From an uncultured Planctomycetales bacterium (GTDB lineage: Bacteria > Omnitrophota > Gorgyraeia > Gygaellales > Profunditerraquicolaceae), in assembly GCA_964354335.1 (NCBI GenBank), contig CAYGZJ010000001.1, forward strand, positions 1 through 38,580: 38,580 nt of DNA. The letters are read 5' to 3'. A program made the position numbers and the translations under genes. Positions 1-9,359 of the stretch are shown piece by piece (within the stretch, counting starts at the first letter, position 1; every line of letters begins with the position of its first letter). A model generated the notes under the pieces. That model was not told the origin of the DNA, did no database searches, and saw only the letters and a list, made by a program, of their open reading frames with translations.

Positions 1-152
1 GCTAAACCGAGTTTAAACATTTACAATTATTTTTTAATAATATATTGGTTATTTTCCTAACCAGTATAGCAACCAAAGCCTCTCTGCAATGTATTCTATC
101 ATAAATTACAATTTAGCGCTAAAATTAACCCTGGGGAAATAAAAATATGCCG

Positions 153-257
153 TATTCCTAGTTAATGGTTATAATCTTACCCTTAATAACGCGAGAATCG
201 CCCAATAATGCCATTAACTAGGAGTCATTAACTAAATGGCGATTTAGAGATAAAGAG
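153..257 (+). repeat. Direct repeat copy 1, flanking the Ehr-type operon on its downstream side. High-identity core 202-257; weaker similarity 153-201.
   Basis: 202-257 matches 7410-7465 at 53/56 positions in the same orientation. 153-201 resembles 7361-7409 at roughly 70 percent by eye. A 12-bp inverted partner is present (157-168 cctagttaatgg vs 211-222 ccattaactagg). Confidence 0.85.
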
Positions 258-827
258 ATAGGTTGAGGAGGTTTGGTGGGAAGGTTGTTCCTTGTCTAAA
301 TGAAGTCTCCCATGTAAGAATGCTAGTAATGTTTTTATAATTATTACTGGGCTTGGTGGGCATCCAGGAATATGCAAAATAACGGGCAAAATATTCTCTA
401 CGCCAGAACAGGTATAATAAGAGTCTTTGAATAAGCCGTCCTTCTTTGTACAGTCTCCCAAAGTAATCACAAATTTCGGATCAGGCATAGCTTCGTAAGT
501 CTTTTTAAGCGCCAGCTCCATGTTCTTAGAAACCGGACCAGTGACTAAAAGCGCATCTGCGTGGCGCGGGCTAGCTACAAAATCAATTCCAAAACGCTGG
601 ATATCATATAAAGGATTAGAGCAAGCGATTATCTCTGATTCGCATGCTCCACAGGATCCCGTATCAACTTCGCGGATATGGAATGACCTGCCGAATTTAG
701 CATGGATGGTCTTCTTAAGCTCTTCTCCTATCTTTTCCAGCTCTTGCGGAAATACAAAACCGGATAAGTCGATCTTTTCAGTAACCTTGCCCTTTTTAAG
801 GCTATTTTTTAGTATATGCAGGTTCAT
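228..827 (-). CDS. NuoB/HycG-like small subunit of a group-4-hydrogenase-related (Ehr-type) membrane complex
   Basis: 199-aa ORF. GSCGACESE, GDCTKKDG and GCPPSP supply the four Cys of the NuoB/HycG-type [4Fe-4S] cluster. It overlaps the large-subunit gene by 4 nt. The last ten codons and the TAA lie inside repeat copy 1. Confidence 0.85.
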   Translation of the reverse strand: MNLHILKNSLKKGKVTEKIDLSGFVFPQELEKIGEELKKTIHAKFGRSFHIREVDTGSCGACESEIIACSNPLYDIQRFGIDFVASPRHADALLVTGPVSKNMELALKKTYEAMPDPKFVITLGDCTKKDGLFKDSYYTCSGVENILPVILHIPGCPPSPVIIIKTLLAFLHGRLHLDKEQPSHQTSSTYLFISKSPFS

Positions 828-2407
828 AAGTCGTTACCTTGATACGATAGGTTAAAACTTTTATTACATAACGGAAAATCCGGAATAATATTCCCAAGCA
901 CCGCAAAAGTCAATCCCTCCCAGTTATGAAACGAAGGGTCTACGATCTTGCAGCGCTCAATCTGACCTTTAGCGTTTAGCCGCGTCCAGACTAATAGCGG
1001 CCCAAGCCAGGCCTCAACATATCCTAAAGCAATGCCTGCCCTTTCACCTGCGTGGACCGAAATCTGCGTATTGCACACGTCAAGTTTTTCCAGACATTGC
1101 ACTATGATCCCGATCGACTCAAATACTTCGCTGCGTCTTACCTTAAGACGCGCTGCAACGTCTCCGGCATGCTCTTTTGCCATTTTAAAATTAAAACTAT
1201 CGTAAATCCCGGGAAAAACCTTTCTTAAGTCCTGCGCAATACCGCTTGCCCTGGCCGCAAGCCCTGTTATACCAAGATCACGCGCTGTTTTAGTGCGCAA
1301 AATCCCTGTTGAGTCAACGCGATCCATAAATGATACACTCGAGAAAAGCATCTCTTCTAGAGAGGTGAAATCTTTTTTAATATTAGCCAGCGCTGTGTAG
1401 GTGAACTCTTTTTTTGCCTTATCAATATCACTTCCTACCCCTCCAACAATATTTATGCCTTTAAGATATCTGGAGCCGCAAAGCTTTTCATTTAACTGTA
1501 AAACCGACTCCTTAATAAGGCTGGCAAACTGAGCAGGAAAAGTAAAGCCTACATCGAGAGCAATACCCCCCATATCATTCGCATGATTATAAAGTCTTTC
1601 AAGCTCTAAATATAAAACACGTAAGACCTGTGCTCGCATAGGAATATTTATGCCTAGTATTTTCTCGGCACTCTGGCAAAACGCCATGCTATACCCAAAC
1701 GCCGCATCTCCGCTTATGTACTCGAAAATCCTTACGGCCTCGTGAATACTTTTGCCCTCCAGAAGCTTCTCTATACCTCTATGCTTCCAGCCAAGCCTTA
1801 TCTCCAGGTTTATGATCGGCTCCCCTGCCACGCTAAACCTGAAATGCCCGGGGCCGATTATGCCTGCATGAACAGGCCCAACAGGCACTTCAAAAATTCC
1901 CTCTCCTTCAACCCGCTTAAATACGTATCTTTGATTCCCAGCAACACCTTCATTTGGTCTGGAGAAATCCTTACGTAAAGGATAAAATCCCTTAGGCCAA
2001 ACCTCATCATGCAACTTAAGGCTCCTAAGATCAGGATTGCCTATTGGCTCAATACCGAACATTTCTTTTATCTCGCGCTCAAAAAGGCTGGCAGAATAAA
2101 TATCCTTTGCAATAGAAGCAAATTGTGGATTACCAGAGGTAGCATCTTGACAAACAAACACCCAAGCATGCATTTGGATACTTAAGAATCCGCAATAAAG
2201 CCTAAACGCATTTGATCCTGACCGTAAATCTTCAGCAAAAAAAGTCCCAACTGCTAATCTAAGATGCTTGTGCAGCAAATTGCAGGCTTTAGCAAAATCA
2301 AATGGATTTACAGTAATATATAATTCATCCGGATAAAGAAAATCCAGATTAATAATATTTATATCCTCAAAAGCGAAAATACTTTTTATGTAATCAGATC
2401 GTATCAT
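824..2407 (-). CDS. HycE/HyfG-like large subunit (NuoC-like N-terminus fused to a NuoD-like core) lacking the NiFe cysteine ligands
   Basis: 527 aa with GPVHAGIIGPGHFRF and LGWKHRGIEKL, typical of group-4 large subunits and NuoD. The expected R-x-C-G-x-C position reads EYISGDAAFGY. The expected C-terminal D-P-C-x-x-C-x-x-R/H reads NLSYQGNDL followed directly by the stop. Confidence 0.8.
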   Translation of the reverse strand: MIRSDYIKSIFAFEDINIINLDFLYPDELYITVNPFDFAKACNLLHKHLRLAVGTFFAEDLRSGSNAFRLYCGFLSIQMHAWVFVCQDATSGNPQFASIAKDIYSASLFEREIKEMFGIEPIGNPDLRSLKLHDEVWPKGFYPLRKDFSRPNEGVAGNQRYVFKRVEGEGIFEVPVGPVHAGIIGPGHFRFSVAGEPIINLEIRLGWKHRGIEKLLEGKSIHEAVRIFEYISGDAAFGYSMAFCQSAEKILGINIPMRAQVLRVLYLELERLYNHANDMGGIALDVGFTFPAQFASLIKESVLQLNEKLCGSRYLKGINIVGGVGSDIDKAKKEFTYTALANIKKDFTSLEEMLFSSVSFMDRVDSTGILRTKTARDLGITGLAARASGIAQDLRKVFPGIYDSFNFKMAKEHAGDVAARLKVRRSEVFESIGIIVQCLEKLDVCNTQISVHAGERAGIALGYVEAWLGPLLVWTRLNAKGQIERCKIVDPSFHNWEGLTFAVLGNIIPDFPLCNKSFNLSYQGNDL

Positions 2408-2408
2408 C

Positions 2409-3872
2409 TTATTTACCTAAAATTAGCTGCTGGCAATTAACAAGTAGATCAAAAAACGCTTGAGGGATCTTTAATCCGAACCCTAATATAAAAATGCCTA
2501 GAAATATTAAAGCTAGCTTTGAACTTAAACCTTCTTTTTGAACAGGCGTTCCTTGAAAGATATTGCCTAAAACTACTCTGCTAATATGATAAAGCAGTCC
2601 TGAAAAAGCAAGGCCGATAAAAATGAATATAAGTGCAGCAATGAAATAAAACTTCCCCTGAAAAGCCGCGACCAAGATTAACAATTTGCTGATAAATATA
2701 GAAAATGGAGGCATTCCTACCAGGGCAAACAATCCGAGAAACATCGCTATCCCCGTAAAAGGCATCGCCTTGATCAACCCCTGCATCTTATCCATGCTGT
2801 TGCTACGGTAGACGCGCACTGCGGAACCCGCGGAAAAAAACATCAGCGCTTTAGTTACTGCGTGGTTAAATGCCTGAAGTAACCCTGCAAAAATCCCCCC
2901 GAAAGCCCCAAAGCCAAGACCTAGAGATACTAAGCCGATATTTTCTACACTGCTATAAGCAAGAAGCCTTTTTAAATCCTTCTGCACAAGGATAAAAACA
3001 CCTGCTACCACGATAGAAAGGATTCCGAATAAAATAAATAGTTTAGCGCTAAATGCGTATCCTACCGCAAGATTCGCCAGTATCACAAAACGCAAAATAG
3101 CGTATAAAGATATCTTAAGCAATACACCGGATAACAGTCCGCTTATAGGAGAAAGCGCCTGGCTGTGCGCATCAGGTAACCAGTTATGCATCGGAGCAAG
3201 TCCTGCCTTAGTACCGTAACCGACAAAGATAAAAACCAAGGCAAGCTTTACAATCTTTGGGCTAAACATGTTTGAACCAGAGAGCATGCTCATCCATTCC
3301 AGGCTTTTTATACCAGCATCTTTTGAAGACGTGTAATAGAAAAATATTATCCCTAAAAGCGCGAAGGTTATGCCCACCGAGCAGATGATAATATATTTCC
3401 AGGCAGCCTCTATTGATTCTTTCACATTATGAAAACCTACCAGGAATGCCGAGATCAGCGTGGTCATTTCTATGGCAATCCAAACCAGAGCCAAATTATT
3501 CGATAGCGGAACCACCAGCATTGTAAGACAGAACAGATCAAATAATTGGAAATAAGCTGTGGCCTTACGGACAGAGGCTTTTCCCTCCTCTACCTCTGCC
3601 AAAATATAGCCAATAGAATATATGCTTGCGGAAAAACTCACTACGGCGGTAACAAGAAGAAAGAAAATGCTTAATGAATCAAGATAAACCAAACCCCATA
3701 AATTTATAGGCGTCATCCCGCTGGAAATAAAATCTTTTAGCAACAAAATACAGACTGCAAGGATTCCTGCGAAACCCAGGGCGTTAATCAGGCCTAGCTG
3801 CTTTATGTTTTTGATAAACAGCGAAAGGGTTAATAAAACAACGGGTATAAGAATAATTAAAACTATAAGCAT
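2409..3872 (-). CDS. HyfF/NuoN/MrpD-like antiporter-type membrane subunit
   Basis: 487 aa, polytopic. The motifs GTKAGLAPMHNWLPDAH and LLAYSSVENIG are typical of NuoL/M/N-family proton-conducting subunits. Confidence 0.85.
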   Translation of the reverse strand: MLIVLIILIPVVLLTLSLFIKNIKQLGLINALGFAGILAVCILLLKDFISSGMTPINLWGLVYLDSLSIFFLLVTAVVSFSASIYSIGYILAEVEEGKASVRKATAYFQLFDLFCLTMLVVPLSNNLALVWIAIEMTTLISAFLVGFHNVKESIEAAWKYIIICSVGITFALLGIIFFYYTSSKDAGIKSLEWMSMLSGSNMFSPKIVKLALVFIFVGYGTKAGLAPMHNWLPDAHSQALSPISGLLSGVLLKISLYAILRFVILANLAVGYAFSAKLFILFGILSIVVAGVFILVQKDLKRLLAYSSVENIGLVSLGLGFGAFGGIFAGLLQAFNHAVTKALMFFSAGSAVRVYRSNSMDKMQGLIKAMPFTGIAMFLGLFALVGMPPFSIFISKLLILVAAFQGKFYFIAALIFIFIGLAFSGLLYHISRVVLGNIFQGTPVQKEGLSSKLALIFLGIFILGFGLKIPQAFFDLLVNCQQLILGK

Positions 3873-3874
3873 GC

Positions 3875-4513
3875 CTATCCTTTTAACGATTTCATCTTTG
3901 AAGTATCAATGTGCGTAAAAAGCCTGTTTACCTTATATACAAATACCTCAATAATGACCACGAAAACAAAAATATCGAAGAAAAGTGCGATCTCCACAAA
4001 AAACGGCATGCCCCCTGCTATGGCGCTTGCCGCAAGAAATATTCCATTTTCCATAACTAGAAGCCCAATAACTTGGCCTAATGCCTTCATCCTGCTGACC
4101 ATTATAAAAAAACCTATACACATTGCTGTTATCGAAAATACAAACGCTGCTGATTCAAATGAATTAGCAAGGGCCATCGCGTTGTGCGCGAATAAATACG
4201 ATAAATACGCAAACACCAGTGCGATTATTAGGGAAAGCTGCGGATTTACGATAAGCCCAAGGTCTTCTTCTACGTTTATGCGGCGCATAATGCGAAAAAG
4301 TACAAGGGGGATAGCGATCACCTTGAGCACAAATACTAAGCCACAAACAATAAACATCTCAAGGTGGTACTGATTTAAGCCCATATATAAGGCATACAGG
4401 AATAAAAAGAAAGACTGAATCCTGAATGCCCTGATCAGGGCAGTTATTCTTTTGGCAACCACTAGAAGAAAAGTAACAACCAAGAAACCGGTTAAAATAA
4501 TGCTTAGAGCCAT
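3875..4513 (-). CDS. HyfE-like small membrane subunit (NuoK-related)
   Basis: 212 aa, about 7 TM segments, with an ENGIFL motif. It sits between the HycD-like and HyfF-like genes, as in hyf operons. Confidence 0.7.
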   Translation of the reverse strand: MALSIILTGFLVVTFLLVVAKRITALIRAFRIQSFFLFLYALYMGLNQYHLEMFIVCGLVFVLKVIAIPLVLFRIMRRINVEEDLGLIVNPQLSLIIALVFAYLSYLFAHNAMALANSFESAAFVFSITAMCIGFFIMVSRMKALGQVIGLLVMENGIFLAASAIAGGMPFFVEIALFFDIFVFVVIIEVFVYKVNRLFTHIDTSKMKSLKG

Positions 4514-4516
4514 GAT

Positions 4517-5401
4517 TTAAAACCCCAGTCCGGCTGCAATCGAAGCAAGCAGCACAATAAAGAAAGAAAAGCTTAGGAAATCAACTACTCTGAAAAGCCG
4601 CATTTTTGCTACAGATATTTCAATTAGGGCAATCACCAGGCTGATAACGGCGATCTTTATCGGGAACACTATCCACTCCCATCTTCCAGATGTCATAAAT
4701 GGAAAAAGATACCAAGAAAGTATGGTAAAGAATATAATTTGCTTAATGTGGCTTGCTAATTCAATAAGCGCCAAGGACCTTCCTGAGTATTCAAGAACCA
4801 TTGCCTCATGAACCATAGTCAGCTCAAGATGTGTTTCCTGGTTGTCTACGGGTATGCGCGATGTCTCAGTAATTGTCACCATAAGAATTGCAAATCCGGA
4901 TAACAAACTTGAGATATTAAAACAACCTATACCTGACATGCACAATACGAAAGCCGCGATAAAAGCTGTGGGTTCAGCAAAACTTGAGATAAACATTTCC
5001 CTGGAAGATCCCATGCCTCCAAATGAACTAGCTGCATCAAGACCGGCTAATGCTAAAAAGAAGCGGCCTAAACCCATTACAAAAAATGTTGCGATCAGGA
5101 TCATTACACAGTTTTCCATGGAATAACCGGGCCATATCAATAGAATCAAAAATAGCGAGCATATGCTGGCTGCAAATAACACTACCGGAGCTGCATAAAA
5201 GATCCATGAAGTATTAAGTGATACCACCTCATCCTTTGAAAAAAGCTTCTGCACGTTATAGTAAGGTTGAAAGATGCTTGGGCCCTTACGCATACGCAAA
5301 GAATTCTTAACCTTGCGAATGAATCCACTTACCAACGGAGCACACAGCACAAGTAAGATGACTTTTCCAGCAACTAAAACTAGATTGTTCAGCGTTATCA
5401 T
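4517..5401 (-). CDS. HycD/HyfC/NuoH-like membrane subunit
   Basis: 294 aa. ETSRIPVDNQETHLELTMVHEAMVLEYSG matches the conserved NuoH/HycD loop pattern (E-x-x-R-x-P-x-D ... E-L ... EYSG). Confidence 0.85.
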   Translation of the reverse strand: MITLNNLVLVAGKVILLVLCAPLVSGFIRKVKNSLRMRKGPSIFQPYYNVQKLFSKDEVVSLNTSWIFYAAPVVLFAASICSLFLILLIWPGYSMENCVMILIATFFVMGLGRFFLALAGLDAASSFGGMGSSREMFISSFAEPTAFIAAFVLCMSGIGCFNISSLLSGFAILMVTITETSRIPVDNQETHLELTMVHEAMVLEYSGRSLALIELASHIKQIIFFTILSWYLFPFMTSGRWEWIVFPIKIAVISLVIALIEISVAKMRLFRVVDFLSFSFFIVLLASIAAGLGF

Positions 5402-5403
5402 GG

Positions 5404-7200
5404 CTAAAATATAGTAGTAATTATTATCAACCCTGCTAAAGTGGCAAAAATATACAAGATATAAAGGTGTATACTCCCCGGCTGCAGCTTTTTCATCTTA
5501 AATGCGGCAGAATAGATCAATCCCAGCAAAGGCTGGTAAAAGTATCGCTTAAATACCGGAGTTGTGTGTGTTTCGTAAGTAAACTTACGTACATGATAAA
5601 AAGAATCTCTTATTTTTTCACTTTTCCTGTAAGGCAATAGAAAAAAGCTAAAGGCTATTCTGAAAGGCTTTGAAAAAGCAGTTGCCGTATATTCATTTCG
5701 GCTGTCCAGTGCATAATATCCACAATCCCAGGTATTATAACGGACTTGTTTAGTGCGTAAACCGAACTTAAACCAAAGAAAGACCGCGATGCCAAGGATA
5801 GCTAAGATTATAGCGATGATCGCAGGTAAAACTGATACAACATTAAAAGACACATCTGCTTTTTCGATACCCAGCGTTGAACGCGAAATGCTTAACAAAA
5901 CCGGCATAATTAATCCGGCCCCGAGACCGAATAAAATCACAAAGGTGGCTAGAATTGCCATGCCGACCTTCATGGAAAAACCGGCTTCCCTTGATTCCTG
6001 AGCACGAACACTCCTCGGTAACGCAAGAAAAGTTATGCCGAAAGCCTTAACAAAACAAGCTGCCGCTAGTCCGCTAGTTAAAGCTAGCGCCGAAGCTGAC
6101 AAAATCATAAAAATTTTAATCCATCCCTGAGAATGTATTACCCCTAAGAAAAATGACTGAAATGTCAGCCATTCGCTGACAAATCCGTTTAACGGCGGAA
6201 GCGCGGAGATACCCATTGCGCCGATCAGAAAAAACGACGCAGTAGCAGGCATTGTTTTTATAAGGCCGCCCATCTTTTCCATATCGCGTAATCCTGTTGC
6301 CTTAAAAACGCTCCCTGAGCAAAGAAACAAAAGCCCCTTAAACAAAGCGTGATTGATCAAATGATACAACCCCGCGCACATAGCTAACACCGCAACTGCC
6401 GCAATGCCTTGACTTCCAAAAAACATTGCTGTCCCTAAGCCTAAAAGGATTATTCCTATATTTTCAACGCTGTGATAGGCAAGTAATTTCTTAAGATCGT
6501 GGTCCATCAACGCATAGATGACTCCGACTAGGCAAGAGATAATCCCAAGCACAAGAATAAACGCGCCCCACCAGGCTAGCCCGGGGCCTAAAAGTGTTAT
6601 GAAGAAACGAATCATGCCGTAAATCGCTACCTTAATCATTACGCCTGACATGATGCTTGAAATATGCGCCGGGGCCTGCGGATGCGCGTAGGGCAACCAA
6701 ATATGTAACGGAACGACTCCTGCCTTGGTCGCAAAACCGATAAACAAAAGTAAAAAAATAACGTTTCGTTCCTGGAGAGGTAGTGAGGTTACAGCGAGTT
6801 TTACTGCAGAATAATCGAAAGAACCTGCGCAGTTATATAGGATAAAAAATGCCGCCATAAGACAGGCGGTGCCGATATGAGTCATTACCAGATAAATCGC
6901 TCCTGCGCGGACAGACTTTTCGTGCTTATAATCAAAAACTACAAGGAAGTAAGAAGCAAGCGACATCAATTCCCAAGACACAAGGAATGAAATAATGTTA
7001 CCGGACAATACTACTGAACACATAGAGAGAGTAAAAATAACTAGAAGCACCCAGGAAACAATCTTCTTTTTAAGCGTTTCTTTATACAAATACCCTATTG
7101 AGAATATTGCCGAAGGAATACAAACAAATCCGATCACAGCAAGAAATAATATTGCCAGCGGATCAATAAAAAATAGCTGTTTTGGCAGTAGATTTATCAT
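5404..7200 (-). CDS. HyfB/HycC/NuoL-like antiporter-type membrane subunit
   Basis: 598 aa. It has the NuoL-family core (ATKAGVVPLHIWLPYAHP, LLAYHSVENIG) and a HycC/HyfB-type C-terminal region containing WDCGY. Confidence 0.85.
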   Translation of the reverse strand: MINLLPKQLFFIDPLAILFLAVIGFVCIPSAIFSIGYLYKETLKKKIVSWVLLVIFTLSMCSVVLSGNIISFLVSWELMSLASYFLVVFDYKHEKSVRAGAIYLVMTHIGTACLMAAFFILYNCAGSFDYSAVKLAVTSLPLQERNVIFLLLFIGFATKAGVVPLHIWLPYAHPQAPAHISSIMSGVMIKVAIYGMIRFFITLLGPGLAWWGAFILVLGIISCLVGVIYALMDHDLKKLLAYHSVENIGIILLGLGTAMFFGSQGIAAVAVLAMCAGLYHLINHALFKGLLFLCSGSVFKATGLRDMEKMGGLIKTMPATASFFLIGAMGISALPPLNGFVSEWLTFQSFFLGVIHSQGWIKIFMILSASALALTSGLAAACFVKAFGITFLALPRSVRAQESREAGFSMKVGMAILATFVILFGLGAGLIMPVLLSISRSTLGIEKADVSFNVVSVLPAIIAIILAILGIAVFLWFKFGLRTKQVRYNTWDCGYYALDSRNEYTATAFSKPFRIAFSFFLLPYRKSEKIRDSFYHVRKFTYETHTTPVFKRYFYQPLLGLIYSAAFKMKKLQPGSIHLYILYIFATLAGLIIITTIF

Positions 7201-7210
7201 TAGATATTAA

Positions 7211-7265
7211 CCCTATAAAAATAAAAAAACCTTCGCCAGCCGTAAACATAAACTAGCAAAGGTTT
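7211..7265 (-). terminator. Terminator-like hairpin plus U-tract in the leader, 10-25 nt upstream of the first Ehr gene's ATG
   Basis: On the minus-strand RNA, AAACCUUUGC (7265-7256) pairs with GCGAAGGUUU (7236-7227). That gives 10 bp including one G-U, with a 19-nt loop. UUUUAUUUUUAU follows, then AGGGUUAAUAUCUA-AUG. Confidence 0.45.
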
Positions 7266-7320
7266 CTCGTTAAAACTTTAGTCCAGACCCACCTTAAAAC
7301 TCGGAACTAATATTGTTAAT

Positions 7321-7348
7321 ATATTATCATATATGCGATCAAAATCAA
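7321..7348 (-). promoter_or_regulatory. Candidate sigma-70 promoter for the Ehr-type operon
   Basis: The minus strand reads TTGATT (7348-7343), 16 nt, TAATAT (7326-7321). This lies about 120 nt upstream of the ATG at 7200. Confidence 0.3.
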
Positions 7349-7360
7349 GAAAATTTGCTG

Positions 7361-7465
7361 GTTTCCCAGTTTATGGCAATATTTTAACCGAAATTATTGC
7401 TAAAAATGGCCAATAATGCCATTAACTAGAAGTCATTAACTAAAGCGCGATTTAGAGATAAAGAG
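7361..7465 (+). repeat. Direct repeat copy 2, on the upstream side of the Ehr-type operon. High-identity core 7410-7465.
   Basis: See copy 1. On the minus strand the core begins immediately after the TAA of the GIY-YIG gene. Confidence 0.85.
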
Positions 7466-7471
7466 GCGGGA

Positions 7472-7750
7472 TTAATCGTGGGATTCGCTTAACTGCATAA
7501 GAAGTGTTTTATCGCCAGATACAAGGGCCGCCTTCTTCTTTTTAGCCCAGCGCTTGATCTGTGCTTCACGTGCTTGCGCACTAGATCTGTTTTGAAACGG
7601 CTCTTTATAAACAACCTCAACCGGCCTGCGATTACTGGTATAATCGCCGCCCTTACCGGCATTGTGCTCGGTTAGTCTGCGGGAAAGGTCGGATGTCGAT
7701 CCAGTGTAAAAACTATTATCTTTACAACGCAGAATATAAACATACCACAT
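7472..7750 (-). CDS. Small GIY-YIG nuclease-superfamily protein (UPF0213/YhbQ-like)
   Basis: YVYILRC..SFYTGSTSDLSRRLTEHN is the GIY-YIG core. I place the start at the ATG at 7750 (MWYVYIL), which has AAGGAG 5 nt upstream. The ORF track extends to 7768. Confidence 0.8.
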   Translation of the reverse strand: MWYVYILRCKDNSFYTGSTSDLSRRLTEHNAGKGGDYTSNRRPVEVVYKEPFQNRSSAQAREAQIKRWAKKKKAALVSGDKTLLMQLSESHD

Positions 7751-7802
7751 ATTGCTCCTTCGACGCACTCGCCTAAACTAAACAACAACTCGCTTGCTCA
7801 GG

Positions 7803-7896
7803 ATGGTTCGCCGCGCCATTATGACAACGCCCTCACCCATTCAGCGCTCACGACAATGGTGAGCAAGCCCGAACGAAGTGAGGGCGCGTCGAACCA
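7803..7896 (-). other. GC-rich nested stem-loop between the tRNA-Gln 3' end and the GIY-YIG gene
   Basis: Three stacked helices are visible: 7803-7815/7885-7897 (13 bp, one mismatch), 7830-7836/7878-7884 (7 bp) and 7846-7851/7859-7864 (6 bp, 7-nt loop). No U-tract follows. Confidence 0.5.
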
Positions 7897-7967
7897 TTGC
7901 CCCGCATGGACTCGAACCATGATAACAAGATCCAGAATCTTGTGTCCTACCATTAGACGACAGGGCA
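7897..7967 (-). tRNA. tRNA-Gln (anticodon CUG)
   Basis: Hand-folded 71-nt cloverleaf. Acceptor UGCCCUG/CGGGGCA (U1-A72), D stem GUCU/GGAC, anticodon stem CAAGA/UCUUG with loop UUCUGGA, T arm CAUGG-UUCGAGU-CCAUG, discriminator A. CCA is not encoded. Confidence 0.85.
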
Positions 7968-7978
7968 GTTATGTAAAA

Positions 7979-8007
7979 AGTATATCGTGGAGAAGATGTT
8001 AAATCAA
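7979..8007 (-). promoter_or_regulatory. Candidate sigma-70 promoter for tRNA-Gln
   Basis: The minus strand reads TTGATT (8007-8002), 17 nt, TATACT (7984-7979). The -10 ends about 11 nt before the tRNA 5' end. Confidence 0.5.
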
Positions 8008-8061
8008 GAAGATTGTTTACGGGGATAACCCTGGTGTCCAAAAAGTGTCCACTGGGAACCT

Positions 8062-8094
8062 GTATAAACAAAAAGGACTCAAACGGTTAAGTCC
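8062..8094 (-). terminator. Weak intrinsic terminator after the zinc-ribbon gene
   Basis: The minus-strand RNA has GGACU(U)...(G)AGUCC, a 5-6 bp stem, followed by UUUUUGUUU. Confidence 0.3.
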
Positions 8095-8119
8095 GGCCCT
8101 TATAAGATTTGCTATGCTT

Positions 8120-8398
8120 TTATTTGTCTACCTTAGACCCTACTTTTTCTCCGGCTTCTACCTTTTCTTTTTTGTCTTCTTTTACATTTTTTACTTCTTT
8201 TACTTCTTCCTTTTTGTTTTCCTTCTTTTCTCCTTTGGAATCTTGATTAACCAAAGGAATTTTTTTATTTTTTTCATCTAAAATTTCCTGACACCTTGAA
8301 CATGCTAATACCCTTCTTCTTTTTTCATTTATAGTCATAACTATTATTTTTAAATAATTATGGGCTAATTTCGTCCCGCATCTTATGCAATTATTCAT
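8120..8398 (-). CDS. Hypothetical zinc-ribbon protein with a Lys/Glu-rich tail
   Basis: 92 aa with CIRC...CSRC (two CxxC pairs) and a C-terminal KE-rich low-complexity region. AAGGAGAG lies upstream of the ATG. Confidence 0.55.
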   Translation of the reverse strand: MNNCIRCGTKLAHNYLKIIVMTINEKRRRVLACSRCQEILDEKNKKIPLVNQDSKGEKKENKKEEVKEVKNVKEDKKEKVEAGEKVGSKVDK

Positions 8399-8447
8399 CT
8401 CGTCTCTCCTTTATCGTCTTGAATTTTCCTTTTTTCTTCTTCCCCAC

Positions 8448-8900
8448 TTATTCCTCTTTTAGAAATTTACATGAATCCATATTTAAATCAAATGTCTTGC
8501 TATCTAGATTTCCTTCGGGGAAAATGAGTGTTAATTTAACAAACATAATTTCCTTTCTTAAATCAAACGTTTTGTATTTTATCCCTTGGGCGGTGAAATC
8601 AATTTCAATAGGATTACCTGCGGGCATTTTGGGAGTAACAACTAGCGATTTCAGTCTATCTGCATCCAGAGAATCTATTTGATCTTTTTTTACAAACTTC
8701 TTGAACTCCTCTAAATTTGCTGGCCAGTTTTTATTTTTATGATAATACTGCACTAAGGCCTTTGTAAGTGGGTTGATGTACTCACCGGCTATTCCTAATC
8801 CTGTATCTGTGCTACCCTCCATACCTGCTCCACAATCTGAAGAATATAATAAAACTACTGATGCCAAGCATATAAGAAGAGATAGTCTTATAATTTTCAT
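8448..8900 (-). CDS. Hypothetical secreted protein
   Basis: 150 aa with an N-terminal signal-like segment MKIIRLSLLICLASVVLLYSS. A strong SD is present (AAAGGAGGAAAGAU-AUG). No recognisable domain. Confidence 0.55.
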   Translation of the reverse strand: MKIIRLSLLICLASVVLLYSSDCGAGMEGSTDTGLGIAGEYINPLTKALVQYYHKNKNWPANLEEFKKFVKKDQIDSLDADRLKSLVVTPKMPAGNPIEIDFTAQGIKYKTFDLRKEIMFVKLTLIFPEGNLDSKTFDLNMDSCKFLKEE

Positions 8901-9150
8901 ATCTTTCCTCCTTTAGCGTATCATACCAAACAAAAAGGCAGCCCCCCATTGAGAGAGTTGGCAATAAACTTTATCTGATTAACCTCATTACCACTCCTTT
9001 GCGATTACACGCTTATTATACTCCTAAATTCCAAAAAATTGTGAGTAATTTGGGAGACACTATCTTAGACTCATAGCCCCACTCCACATACCCCCCCGAC
9101 TAAGTGTCCATAATAGACACCAATTGGCACCAACACACACCAACAGCCAC

Positions 9151-9182: not shown

Positions 9183-9225
9183 GCATTTACAACAAAATCA
9201 ATTATTTATGGAAATTTTCCTTATC

Positions 9226-9359
9226 GATCCCTGAATCTTGCGTCCTACCCCCCCCTCCTTCGCCCTTTTAATCTAAAGTAAGAGATCCGATGGGCTTCGG
9301 GGGGCTGCGCTCGCATATAGCTAACCAAATCTGGCTCGCTTGATTAGACGACAGGGCAG
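9226..9359 (-). pseudogene. tRNA-Gln 5'-half remnant interrupted by a 93-nt insert at the D-loop
   Basis: 9343-9359 is identical (17/17) to 7952-7968. 9226-9249 matches 7929-7951 with two substitutions and one indel. The pieces are separated by 9250-9342. The T arm and 3' acceptor strand are absent. Confidence 0.7.

Follow-up and report, generated by a model that had tools for sequence, protein, structure and literature searches.

A six-gene Ehr/Mbh-type operon beside tRNA-Gln in an Omnitrophota genome is probably a recombinase-less cassette in an array of serine-recombinase island sites

How did a complete six-gene Ehr/Mbh-type operon come to lie between two copies of a direct repeat next to a tRNA gene? 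The question is raised by a stretch of 38,580 nucleotides (nt), here called the window, which is the initial 38.6 kb of contig C1 (CAYGZJ010000001.1) in the assembly GCA_964354335.1 (G000) of an uncultured bacterium placed in the Omnitrophota. G000 is a metagenome-assembled genome (MAG) of 1,443,755 nt (227 contigs; completeness, 86%; contamination, 4.2%), and the junctions between repeats and operon are known from this one MAG contig. We compared the locus with two congeners, G001 and G002, and with a set of 151 genomes of the family. We consider it probable that the operon was gained as a cassette without a recombinase, within a tandem array at a tRNA-Gln hotspot of serine-recombinase islands. 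By sequence comparison, the derived nature of both the placement of the operon between two sites and the fusion of its last gene can be taken as established. Three points are inferred: the role of a serine recombinase in the insertion, the descent of the operon from another lineage, and the sequence of events.

The minus strand carries every gene of the bracketed stretch. In the direction of transcription, the order is tRNA-Gln(CTG), a GIY-YIG gene, repeat copy 2, promoter and leader, the six-gene operon, and repeat copy 1. The features to which we refer are as follows.

7897-7967, minus strand: tRNA-Gln(CTG), called by ARAGORN and matched by Rfam at 61 bits; putative docking gene of the array.
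7472-7768, minus strand: GIY-YIG nuclease-family gene of 98 amino acids (aa), Pfam PF01541 at 3.6e-22.
7350-7465, minus strand: repeat copy 2, a three-motif site scoring 74.2 bits with the covariance model R1 (see below).
7348-7343 and 7329-7321, minus strand: operon promoter, with -35 TTGATT and extended -10 TGATAATAT, conserved in G001 and G002.
7201-7316, minus strand: leader with a terminator-like hairpin, 5' of the operon.
7200-228, minus strand: six-gene Ehr/Mbh-type operon, assigned with Pfam.
312-7349, minus strand: inserted segment (operon, leader and own promoter), delimited by collinearity with G001 and G002.
228-827, minus strand: NuoB-like small subunit (Oxidored_q6), assigned with Pfam.
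258-311, minus strand: spacer remnant, the last ~54 nt of a tRNA-to-site spacer, recognized by alignment to the G001 and G002 spacers.
142-257, minus strand: repeat copy 1, a three-motif site scoring 82.9 bits with R1.
91-141, minus strand: flank beyond copy 1, homologous to the sequence that precedes the patatin-like gene in the empty locus of G002.

The two repeat copies (142-257 and 7350-7465) are direct, ungapped and 78% identical over 116 nt. A preliminary description of the window had noted the core of this repeat, its position 3' of tRNA-Gln and weaker similarity further out. Our alignment agrees: 53 of 56 positions are identical in the core (202-257 and 7410-7465) and 38 of 60 (~63%) in the distal arm (142-201 and 7350-7409), and the longest exact match shared by the copies is 20 nt. 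As was also reported there, the small-subunit gene ends within copy 1, which contributes its final ten codons and TAA (LFISKSPFS*), and copy 2 reads SRLFISKSRFS* in the frame of the GIY-YIG gene; the shared peptide is a consequence of nucleotide identity. Copy 2 begins 6 nt past the TAA of the GIY-YIG gene. The 5' start of copy 2 lies 431 nt from the 3' end of tRNA-Gln, with the GIY-YIG gene between them, and only 141 nt separate copy 1 from the contig start. BLAST over the whole assembly (1.44 Mb) returned the two repeat copies and no others. The repeat is therefore not a dispersed element of the repetitive extragenic palindromic (REP) type, a possibility that the description had raised.

Each copy is a site of ~105 nt that contains three TAGTTAATG 9-mers, two of them direct and 14 nt apart and the third inverted and 52-53 nt off. 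Copy 1 follows this geometry exactly (direct pair at 226-234 and 212-220, inverted 9-mer at 159-167); in copy 2 the direct pair occupies 7434-7442 and 7420-7428, and the inverted 9-mer (7367-7375) is degenerate. A stretch that is 75% identical to window 156-274 was found on contig C3 of G013, 38 nt past the stop codon of a gene for a large serine recombinase (LSR) of 545 aa with Resolvase, Recombinase and Zn_ribbon_recom domains, and a DUF2924 gene lies directly upstream of this LSR gene. The motif geometry is found just 3' of the LSR gene both in G013 and, beside orthologous LSR genes that also have a DUF2924 partner, in G001, G002, G028, G034, G039 and G014, the sites of the last six bearing the variant 9-mers TATTTAATG and TATATAATG.

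We used ten sites, mostly recombinase-linked and including both G000 copies, to build the sequence-only covariance model R1. Scanning the 151 family genomes with it gave 44 sites in 25 genomes, one to four in each, and 30 loci were oriented and examined for their context. A tRNA gene (His, Gln, Met or Asn) lies upstream in 20 of the 30 loci, and its end is 180-193 nt ahead of the site in 18 of these 20, the exceptions being G002 (198 nt) and copy 2 of G000 (431 nt). A convergent LSR gene ends 25-55 nt past the site in 14 of the 30 loci, and one more holds an LSR remnant. In G000, copy 2 is followed by the operon promoter and copy 1 by a non-coding flank, with no LSR/DUF2924 pair at either. The combination of tRNA-Gln and a site 171-198 nt downstream was seen in G133, G118, G022, G001 and G002, and in G133 and G118 a convergent LSR gene comes next. 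A pattern scan of named genomes found the sites mainly in Candidatus Omnitrophota MAGs. Loci at tRNA-His and at tRNA-Gln share homologous spacers and sites, which therefore travel with the islands and are not the native flank of one tRNA. Together, these comparisons support the view that the repeats are not a simple target duplication but conserved end-modules of Omnitrophota islands, which would encode an LSR and dock just downstream of tRNA genes.

The two copies also differ from each other in a manner that bears on their origin. The distal arm of copy 1 is 80% identical to that of G002 and 63% identical to that of copy 2, and the cores are 95% identical. This mosaic of diverged arms and near-identical cores fits two separately derived units better than a recent duplication. 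The left arm of copy 2 is 90% identical to copy 1, and its right end is nearest to TAGTTTATG-type sites, with an identity of 0.81 to G100 vs 0.67 to copy 1, a weak signal over ~30 nt. It is only suggestive, on that ~30-nt basis, that copy 2 may be a hybrid site with a TAGTTAATG-type left arm and a TAGTTTATG-type right arm. Both arms of copy 1 resemble recombinase-linked sites elsewhere, such as those of contig C10 in G060 and of G073.

We then compared the locus with its counterparts in the congeners. In both G001 and G002 the locus is empty, with tRNA-Gln followed by a spacer and a single site, and the operon is encoded on other contigs. On contig C50 of G002, a stretch of 170 nt is 80.6% identical to window 91-260; this site lies 198 nt from tRNA-Gln and directly precedes a patatin-like gene. 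On contig C1 of G001, the core is 96% identical to copy 2 and lies 171 nt from tRNA-Gln, and the homology stops ~17 nt past the second 9-mer. Operon and GIY-YIG gene are both absent from these two loci. Thus, the one-site locus that the preliminary description had proposed to look for exists in both relatives, although without the GIY-YIG gene expected there, and the two copies are not a syntenic feature of either congener. The operon of G001 is on the 41.5-kb contig C41, collinear with window 312-7306 (77.7%), between an ACR3-type gene upstream and a CsoR-type gene downstream. In G002 it is on C58, collinear with window 1675-7350 (78.2%) and likewise between ACR3 and CsoR. The GIY-YIG gene, of which a homolog (51% identical) lies beside tRNA-Gln in G018, occupies the position that the tRNA-to-site spacer has in the relatives.

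The corresponding neighbors of G000 are found on other contigs. Contig C2 carries the CsoR gene, whose upstream neighbor is a Thi4 (thiazole synthase) gene, and homology to G001 starts at the CsoR -35; the patatin ortholog is on contig C194. Halves of Thi4 stand at the starts of C194 and C2 and are split at the same codon (...ERKLS / SVGGGMWGGG...), which indicates that these contigs are neighbors, and the order in G000 is likely patatin, Thi4, CsoR. No contig-end overlap was found between the start of C1 and the patatin contig C194.

Collinearity with the relatives places the ends of the inserted segment. The 5' end (7349) is immediately upstream of the operon's own -35, and the 3' end, at 311/312, is three codons ahead of the native small-subunit stop. 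As a result, the small subunit of G000 is without its last three codons and stop and carries instead a tail of 25 residues read from 228-302, that is, from spacer and site DNA (G000, ...LAFL continued by HGRLHLDKEQPSHQTSSTYLFISKSPFS; G001, ...LAFLNNP). The first ~15 residues of the tail come from the 54-nt spacer remnant and the last ten from the site. The remnant was recognized in two alignments: the G001 spacer matches window 279-196 at 87% (BLAST), and CTAAATGAAG.CTCC matches the G002 spacer at 14 of 15 positions (MAFFT). Query residues 171-176 mark the C-terminus of all 12 orthologs compared, which represent ten other genera and the two congeners. This makes the G000 end the derived one, which argues for gain and against loss of the operon; the description had left these open. 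Its statement that the repeats enclose exactly the operon and its leader holds for the bracketing and fails at the 3' end, where the junction cuts off three codons. For annotation, the odd tail is best treated as translated island DNA, a read-through product of a junction event, and not as a functional extension. A tRNA-like remnant, CATGGGAGAC, was considered at 311/312, but its match to the tRNA (7 of 13 positions) was judged not significant.

The operon differs in composition from its genome, as the description had judged by eye. Its GC content is 0.413 vs 0.467 for the genome, within the lowest 1% of 7-kb windows. GC content at third codon positions (GC3) is 0.386-0.437 in the six genes vs a mean of 0.538 (standard deviation [SD], 0.05) for the 687 open reading frames (ORFs) of at least 250 aa, which puts all six genes in the lowest 0.4-2.6%. 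Hydrophobic ORFs of the genome average 0.534, so the low values are not a bias of membrane proteins. The G001 orthologs have a GC3 of 0.46-0.54, fitting their local background of 0.467. A lateral origin of the operon, from a related, AT-richer Omnitrophota lineage, is probable on these data.

The low-GC tract runs from ~312 to ~9400 and includes an AT-rich stretch upstream of the tRNA (7968 to ~9225); it ends at a tRNA fragment rather than at the tRNA gene. This fragment is a displaced 5' half of tRNA-Gln at 9225-9359 on the minus strand, with its own promoter and a 93-nt GC-rich insert after TCTAAT. Either one larger replacement event or two separate events may have shaped the locus. The intact tRNA-Gln(CTG) of G000 is 100% identical to that of G028, a genome of another family, 99% identical to that of G024 and 90% identical to those of both congeners, from which it differs in the anticodon stem.

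Direct sites with cargo between them were also found in four other genomes, G074, G059, G063 and G060, which have two or three direct sites 1.7-9.9 kb apart and recombinase-less cargo between the sites. The cargo genes below were named by reading of the sequences and not by family search.

G074 (locus L119, contig C206, 10109-15129): tRNA-His, then three sites.
G059 (locus L120, contig C8): tRNA-His, then two sites; Fur-like regulator, MinD-like ATPases, ZIP transporter and metallo-beta-lactamase-fold protein.
G063 (locus L121, contig C11): ABC ATPase and ArsM-like methyltransferase in the cargo; recombinase remnant past the second site.
G060 (locus L122, contig C10): ClC channel, DsbD-like protein and aldo-keto reductase.

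In the aligned arrays (G059, G060 and G074), each internal boundary opens with a degenerate tRNA 3' end, comprising T arm and acceptor strand, and continues through a spacer into a site. The spacer measures ~180 nt and contains a terminator-like hairpin and a GAGTTAGGGC box, and the repeated unit ends ~10-40 nt past the third 9-mer. Judging from the tRNA fragments, the crossover point could lie in the tRNA end; it could also lie within the site. A tRNA-His 3' fragment was sought at the far end of the island on contig C24 of G001, and none was found within 20 kb. The array cargo is mostly related to metal, ion and redox homeostasis (Fur-like, ZIP, ArsM-like, ClC, DsbD-like), together with some uncharacterized proteins of a defence-like appearance. 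Sites of the TAGTTTATG subfamily (L121 5034-5200, L122, and L119 12089-12260) have a fourth 9-mer, ATAAACTAG, ~30 nt past the third, which makes a layout of two direct and two inverted motifs; the G000 copies do not have it. Moreover, distant LSRs that are 30-41% identical to the G013 enzyme lie at most ~0.6 kb from tRNA-Gln(CTG) in G016 (C54), G012 (C12) and G030 (C34), indicating that docking at tRNA-Gln is not limited to one recombinase subfamily.

According to our model, the tRNA-Gln locus of G000 would be a tandem array of two units, the first made of copy 2 and the operon and the second of copy 1 and the patatin-gene region. An entire Ehr-type operon, including a promoter and leader of its own, would have been placed at tRNA-Gln in the G000 lineage. 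It would have arrived together with copy 2, perhaps with the GIY-YIG gene as well, probably from an AT-richer member of the Omnitrophota, and the resident site (copy 1) would have been left downstream, as in the tandem accretion of islands. Illegitimate recombination or deletion would have created the 3' junction or altered it afterwards; in this event, three small-subunit codons would have been lost along with most of the second spacer and any tRNA-like fragment, and the frame would have been fused to island DNA. All six genes of the operon encode parts of the complex (by Pfam, two Proton_antipo_M proteins, a NuoH-like protein, a 212-aa protein without a domain match, a fused 30-kDa/49-kDa subunit and the NuoB-like subunit), and no integrase is encoded among them. 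In its present state, the cassette would be fixed or, at best, mobilizable in cis or trans. Its deletion by recombination between the copies is plausible and would remove the only operon copy of the assembly.

Several observations weigh against this model. PF00239, the serine recombinase domain, has 0 matches in the assembled 86% of the genome, and the only tyrosine recombinases of the assembly are two of ~293 aa, probably of the Xer type by size. A tRNA-like fragment was sought at 258-330 and none was found, and the 3' junction lacks ~130 nt of the spacer present at canonical array boundaries; with the cut gene, these absences mean that at least one event that was not site specific is needed. 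The spacer before copy 2 is taken by the GIY-YIG gene, a poor fit to a clean site-specific event, and in the R1 scan of the family genomes no site adjoins the operon in other genomes. Two of the neighbors have a low GC3 as well (GIY-YIG gene, 0.44; patatin gene, 0.45), although CsoR does not (0.63), so that a regional compositional effect is possible. The operon proteins are 77-87% identical (mean, 82.5%) to those of G001 and G002, compared to a median of 68% in 20 other ORF comparisons, a closeness for which slow evolution of the complex is an equally good explanation. A donor search in a collection of 5.8 billion proteins gave 74% as the best outside match to the large subunit. Two metagenome scans, one with the junction of the GIY-YIG gene and copy 2 and one with the core, found nothing, and exact-protein look-ups with the GIY-YIG protein and the tailed small subunit gave no further contigs.

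Part of this evidence would suit an intragenomic relocation, which we regard as unlikely but as the most serious of the alternatives. Here, the genome's own operon would have been moved, or duplicated and then lost, to a place beside tRNA-Gln by illegitimate recombination that duplicated a target of ~116-170 nt, without lateral transfer or a site-specific recombinase. The imprecise 3' junction that cuts a gene, the lack of a recombinase in the assembly and the closeness of the operon to same-genus orthologs are all in agreement with such a move. Gene order around the loci also differs widely between G000 and G001/G002 (CsoR, Thi4 and C153/C2 blocks), and one tandem duplication plus two deletions could yield all three junctions. 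We keep this duplication-deletion model only as part of the relocation reading, since it needs the tRNA-Gln and operon loci to have once been adjacent, which is unsupported: the contexts of Thi4 and CsoR are unrelated in G001 and G002. Relocation also does not predict an operon GC3 that is 2-3 SD under the genome mean when the G001 ortholog fits its own genome. Moreover, distal arms that are 63% identical between the copies vs 80% between copy 1 and G002 are unexpected for a duplication after the split, and the site-cargo-site layout recurs in four other genomes.

An assembly artefact is very improbable. It would require that the first ~0.3 kb of C1, or the first ~7.9 kb up to tRNA-Gln, was misjoined from another metagenome population. 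Such an error is conceivable in a contaminated MAG of this many contigs, with copy 1 so close to a contig end, and a tRNA-Gln identical to that of a genome of another family could be the join point of a chimera. However, an exact match of 20 nt between the copies is too short to mislead an assembler, and no k-mer is shared at the 311/312 junction. The low-GC stretch runs past the tRNA to ~9400, where the displaced tRNA 5' half sits. There is no second operon copy in the assembly, and the operon is absent from the position that it has in G001. Finally, a chimeric join at the tRNA would still leave both copies and the operon on one side.

Still less probable is that the repeats are kept as regulatory DNA or RNA (a shared operator, an insulator or a structured RNA) and are not traces of mobility. 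Both copies do lie just upstream of a promoter, that of the operon at 7321-7348 and a TGATAGAAT region below copy 1, and core conservation is 95-96% in G000 and G001, although the copy of G002 has decayed. Conversely, 14 loci have a convergent recombinase 3' end after the site and not a promoter. At a permissive threshold, Rfam matched the tRNA alone in window 1-9000 and neither repeat copy, and the copies fold with ordinary energies (z = -0.9 and -1.25); a structured-RNA reading of the repeats was dropped on the basis of these unremarkable energies. The three 9-mers co-vary between five subfamily variants (TAGTTAATG, TATTTAATG, TATATAATG, TAGTTTATG and TAGTAAATG). As a hairpin would need two and all three change together, with ordinary folds and no Rfam match, we read the 9-mers as candidate binding sites of an island-encoded protein. 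Least credible of all is that the arrangement is ancestral and that G001 and G002 lost the operon by recombination between the 95% identical cores, which would give their one-site locus, because in both the operon is intact at another place, with the normal C-terminus common to ten other genera, whereas the G000 end is fused and truncated, and because the one-site tRNA-Gln module is also present in G022, G133 and G118.

The locus is comparable to several described systems. In classical tRNA islands, the direct repeat is the 3' end of the tRNA itself and the integrase is a tyrosine recombinase. Like these, the G000 locus adjoins a tRNA gene, has direct repeats and a deviant composition, and is absent from the site in close relatives. 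Unlike in these, the repeat starts ~180 nt past the tRNA and contains no 3' part of it, the associated enzyme family is the LSR family, and the element has no integrase of its own.

In layout, the closest described system is that of the Dehalococcoides ssrA islands, which are tandem and low in G+C, carry a reverse-strand gene for a serine recombinase of ~540 residues next to attL, and have vcrABC and rdhA among their cargo; some units are without the integration module and were proposed to be mobilizable in cis (PMC3146451). The G000 locus shares the tandem arrangement downstream of a structured-RNA gene, the low GC content, the break in synteny and the energy-metabolism cargo. The systems differ in their boundaries, which are 20-bp repeats of the ssrA 3' end in Dehalococcoides and here a 116-nt three-motif site and part of a spacer with no tRNA fragment. 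They differ also in the partner genes, DsiA/RecF/ParB-type in Dehalococcoides (PMC3146451) and DUF2924 here, and docking is at tRNA-His, -Gln, -Met and -Asn in the Omnitrophota. Cis-mobilizable elements (CIMEs) are another point of reference: like them, the G000 element is without integration or transfer genes, is bounded at both ends by attachment (att)-type sites, here those matching R1 at 82.9 and 74.2 bits, and stands in tandem at a shared docking gene. Unlike it, CIMEs have functional attL and attR and derive from decayed integrative and conjugative or integrative and mobilizable elements, mostly with tyrosine integrases (PMC5704250). In G000, the att-like sites are putative, one boundary is damaged, and the cargo is an operon of the family-wide core. 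The staphylococcal cassette chromosome mec (SCCmec) and the enterococcus cassette chromosome are LSR cassettes 3' of a conserved gene, with direct repeats of ~50 nt that include inverted repeats, highly variable cargo and recombinase-less remnants, all of which resemble the present case. They dock at rlmH, use CcrA and CcrB and have unrelated repeats, for which no threefold co-varying 9-mers are described (PMC6222049). The G000 element is thus a known kind of genomic island; what sets it apart is its unusual cargo and the well-defined family of three-motif sites.

Operons for multi-subunit energy complexes are usually taken as core and vertically inherited. The present locus suggests that a whole multi-subunit energy-conserving complex can land in a cassette array of a mobile-island family. 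In small Omnitrophota genomes, this would give such complexes a concrete means of being exchanged laterally or replaced by xenologs. It also permits a comparison of three states: empty site, recombinase-bearing island and recombinase-less cassette. The clade of serine recombinases that docks at tRNA genes is barely described, this role being usually that of tyrosine integrases, and the conserved three-motif site offers biochemistry a well-defined target. A more far-reaching proposal, which we put forward only tentatively, is that the Ehr-type complex is exchangeable cargo moved between Omnitrophota by an LSR supplied in trans and replacing the operon of the recipient, with the ~105-nt site, ~190 nt from the tRNA end, as a required and undescribed part of the substrate. 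If this were true, the required site with its three 9-mers would be unlike the minimal sites of ~50 bp of the serine integrases that have been studied.

Three further elements were observed in the course of these comparisons. The leader of the operon (7201-7316) is conserved at 73-81% across genera (G013, G022, G024, G004, G014, G001 and G002); its hairpin has a U-run and ends ~14 nt ahead of the first start codon, and Rfam does not match the leader, which could represent an attenuator or riboswitch of Ehr-type operons that has not been described. The spacers between tRNA-Gln and the site in the congeners hold hairpin elements of ~85 nt (L042 5925-6053 on contig C1 of G001; L041 6370-6490 on contig C50 of G002), copies of which, 77-88% identical, are present on at least five G000 contigs (C77, C91, C166, C152 and C98). 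These look like a small dispersed family of the genus, resembling REP elements or miniature inverted-repeat transposable elements. Finally, the CsoR promoter, TTGACATACCATACCCCCCTATGGTATACT (G000, C2 770-830; G001, L043 on C41, ~4800-4860), contains a C-tract flanked by inverted ATACC/GGTAT arms and is nearly identical in G000 and G001 despite the different upstream neighbors; C-tract and arms are probably the operator of CsoR itself.

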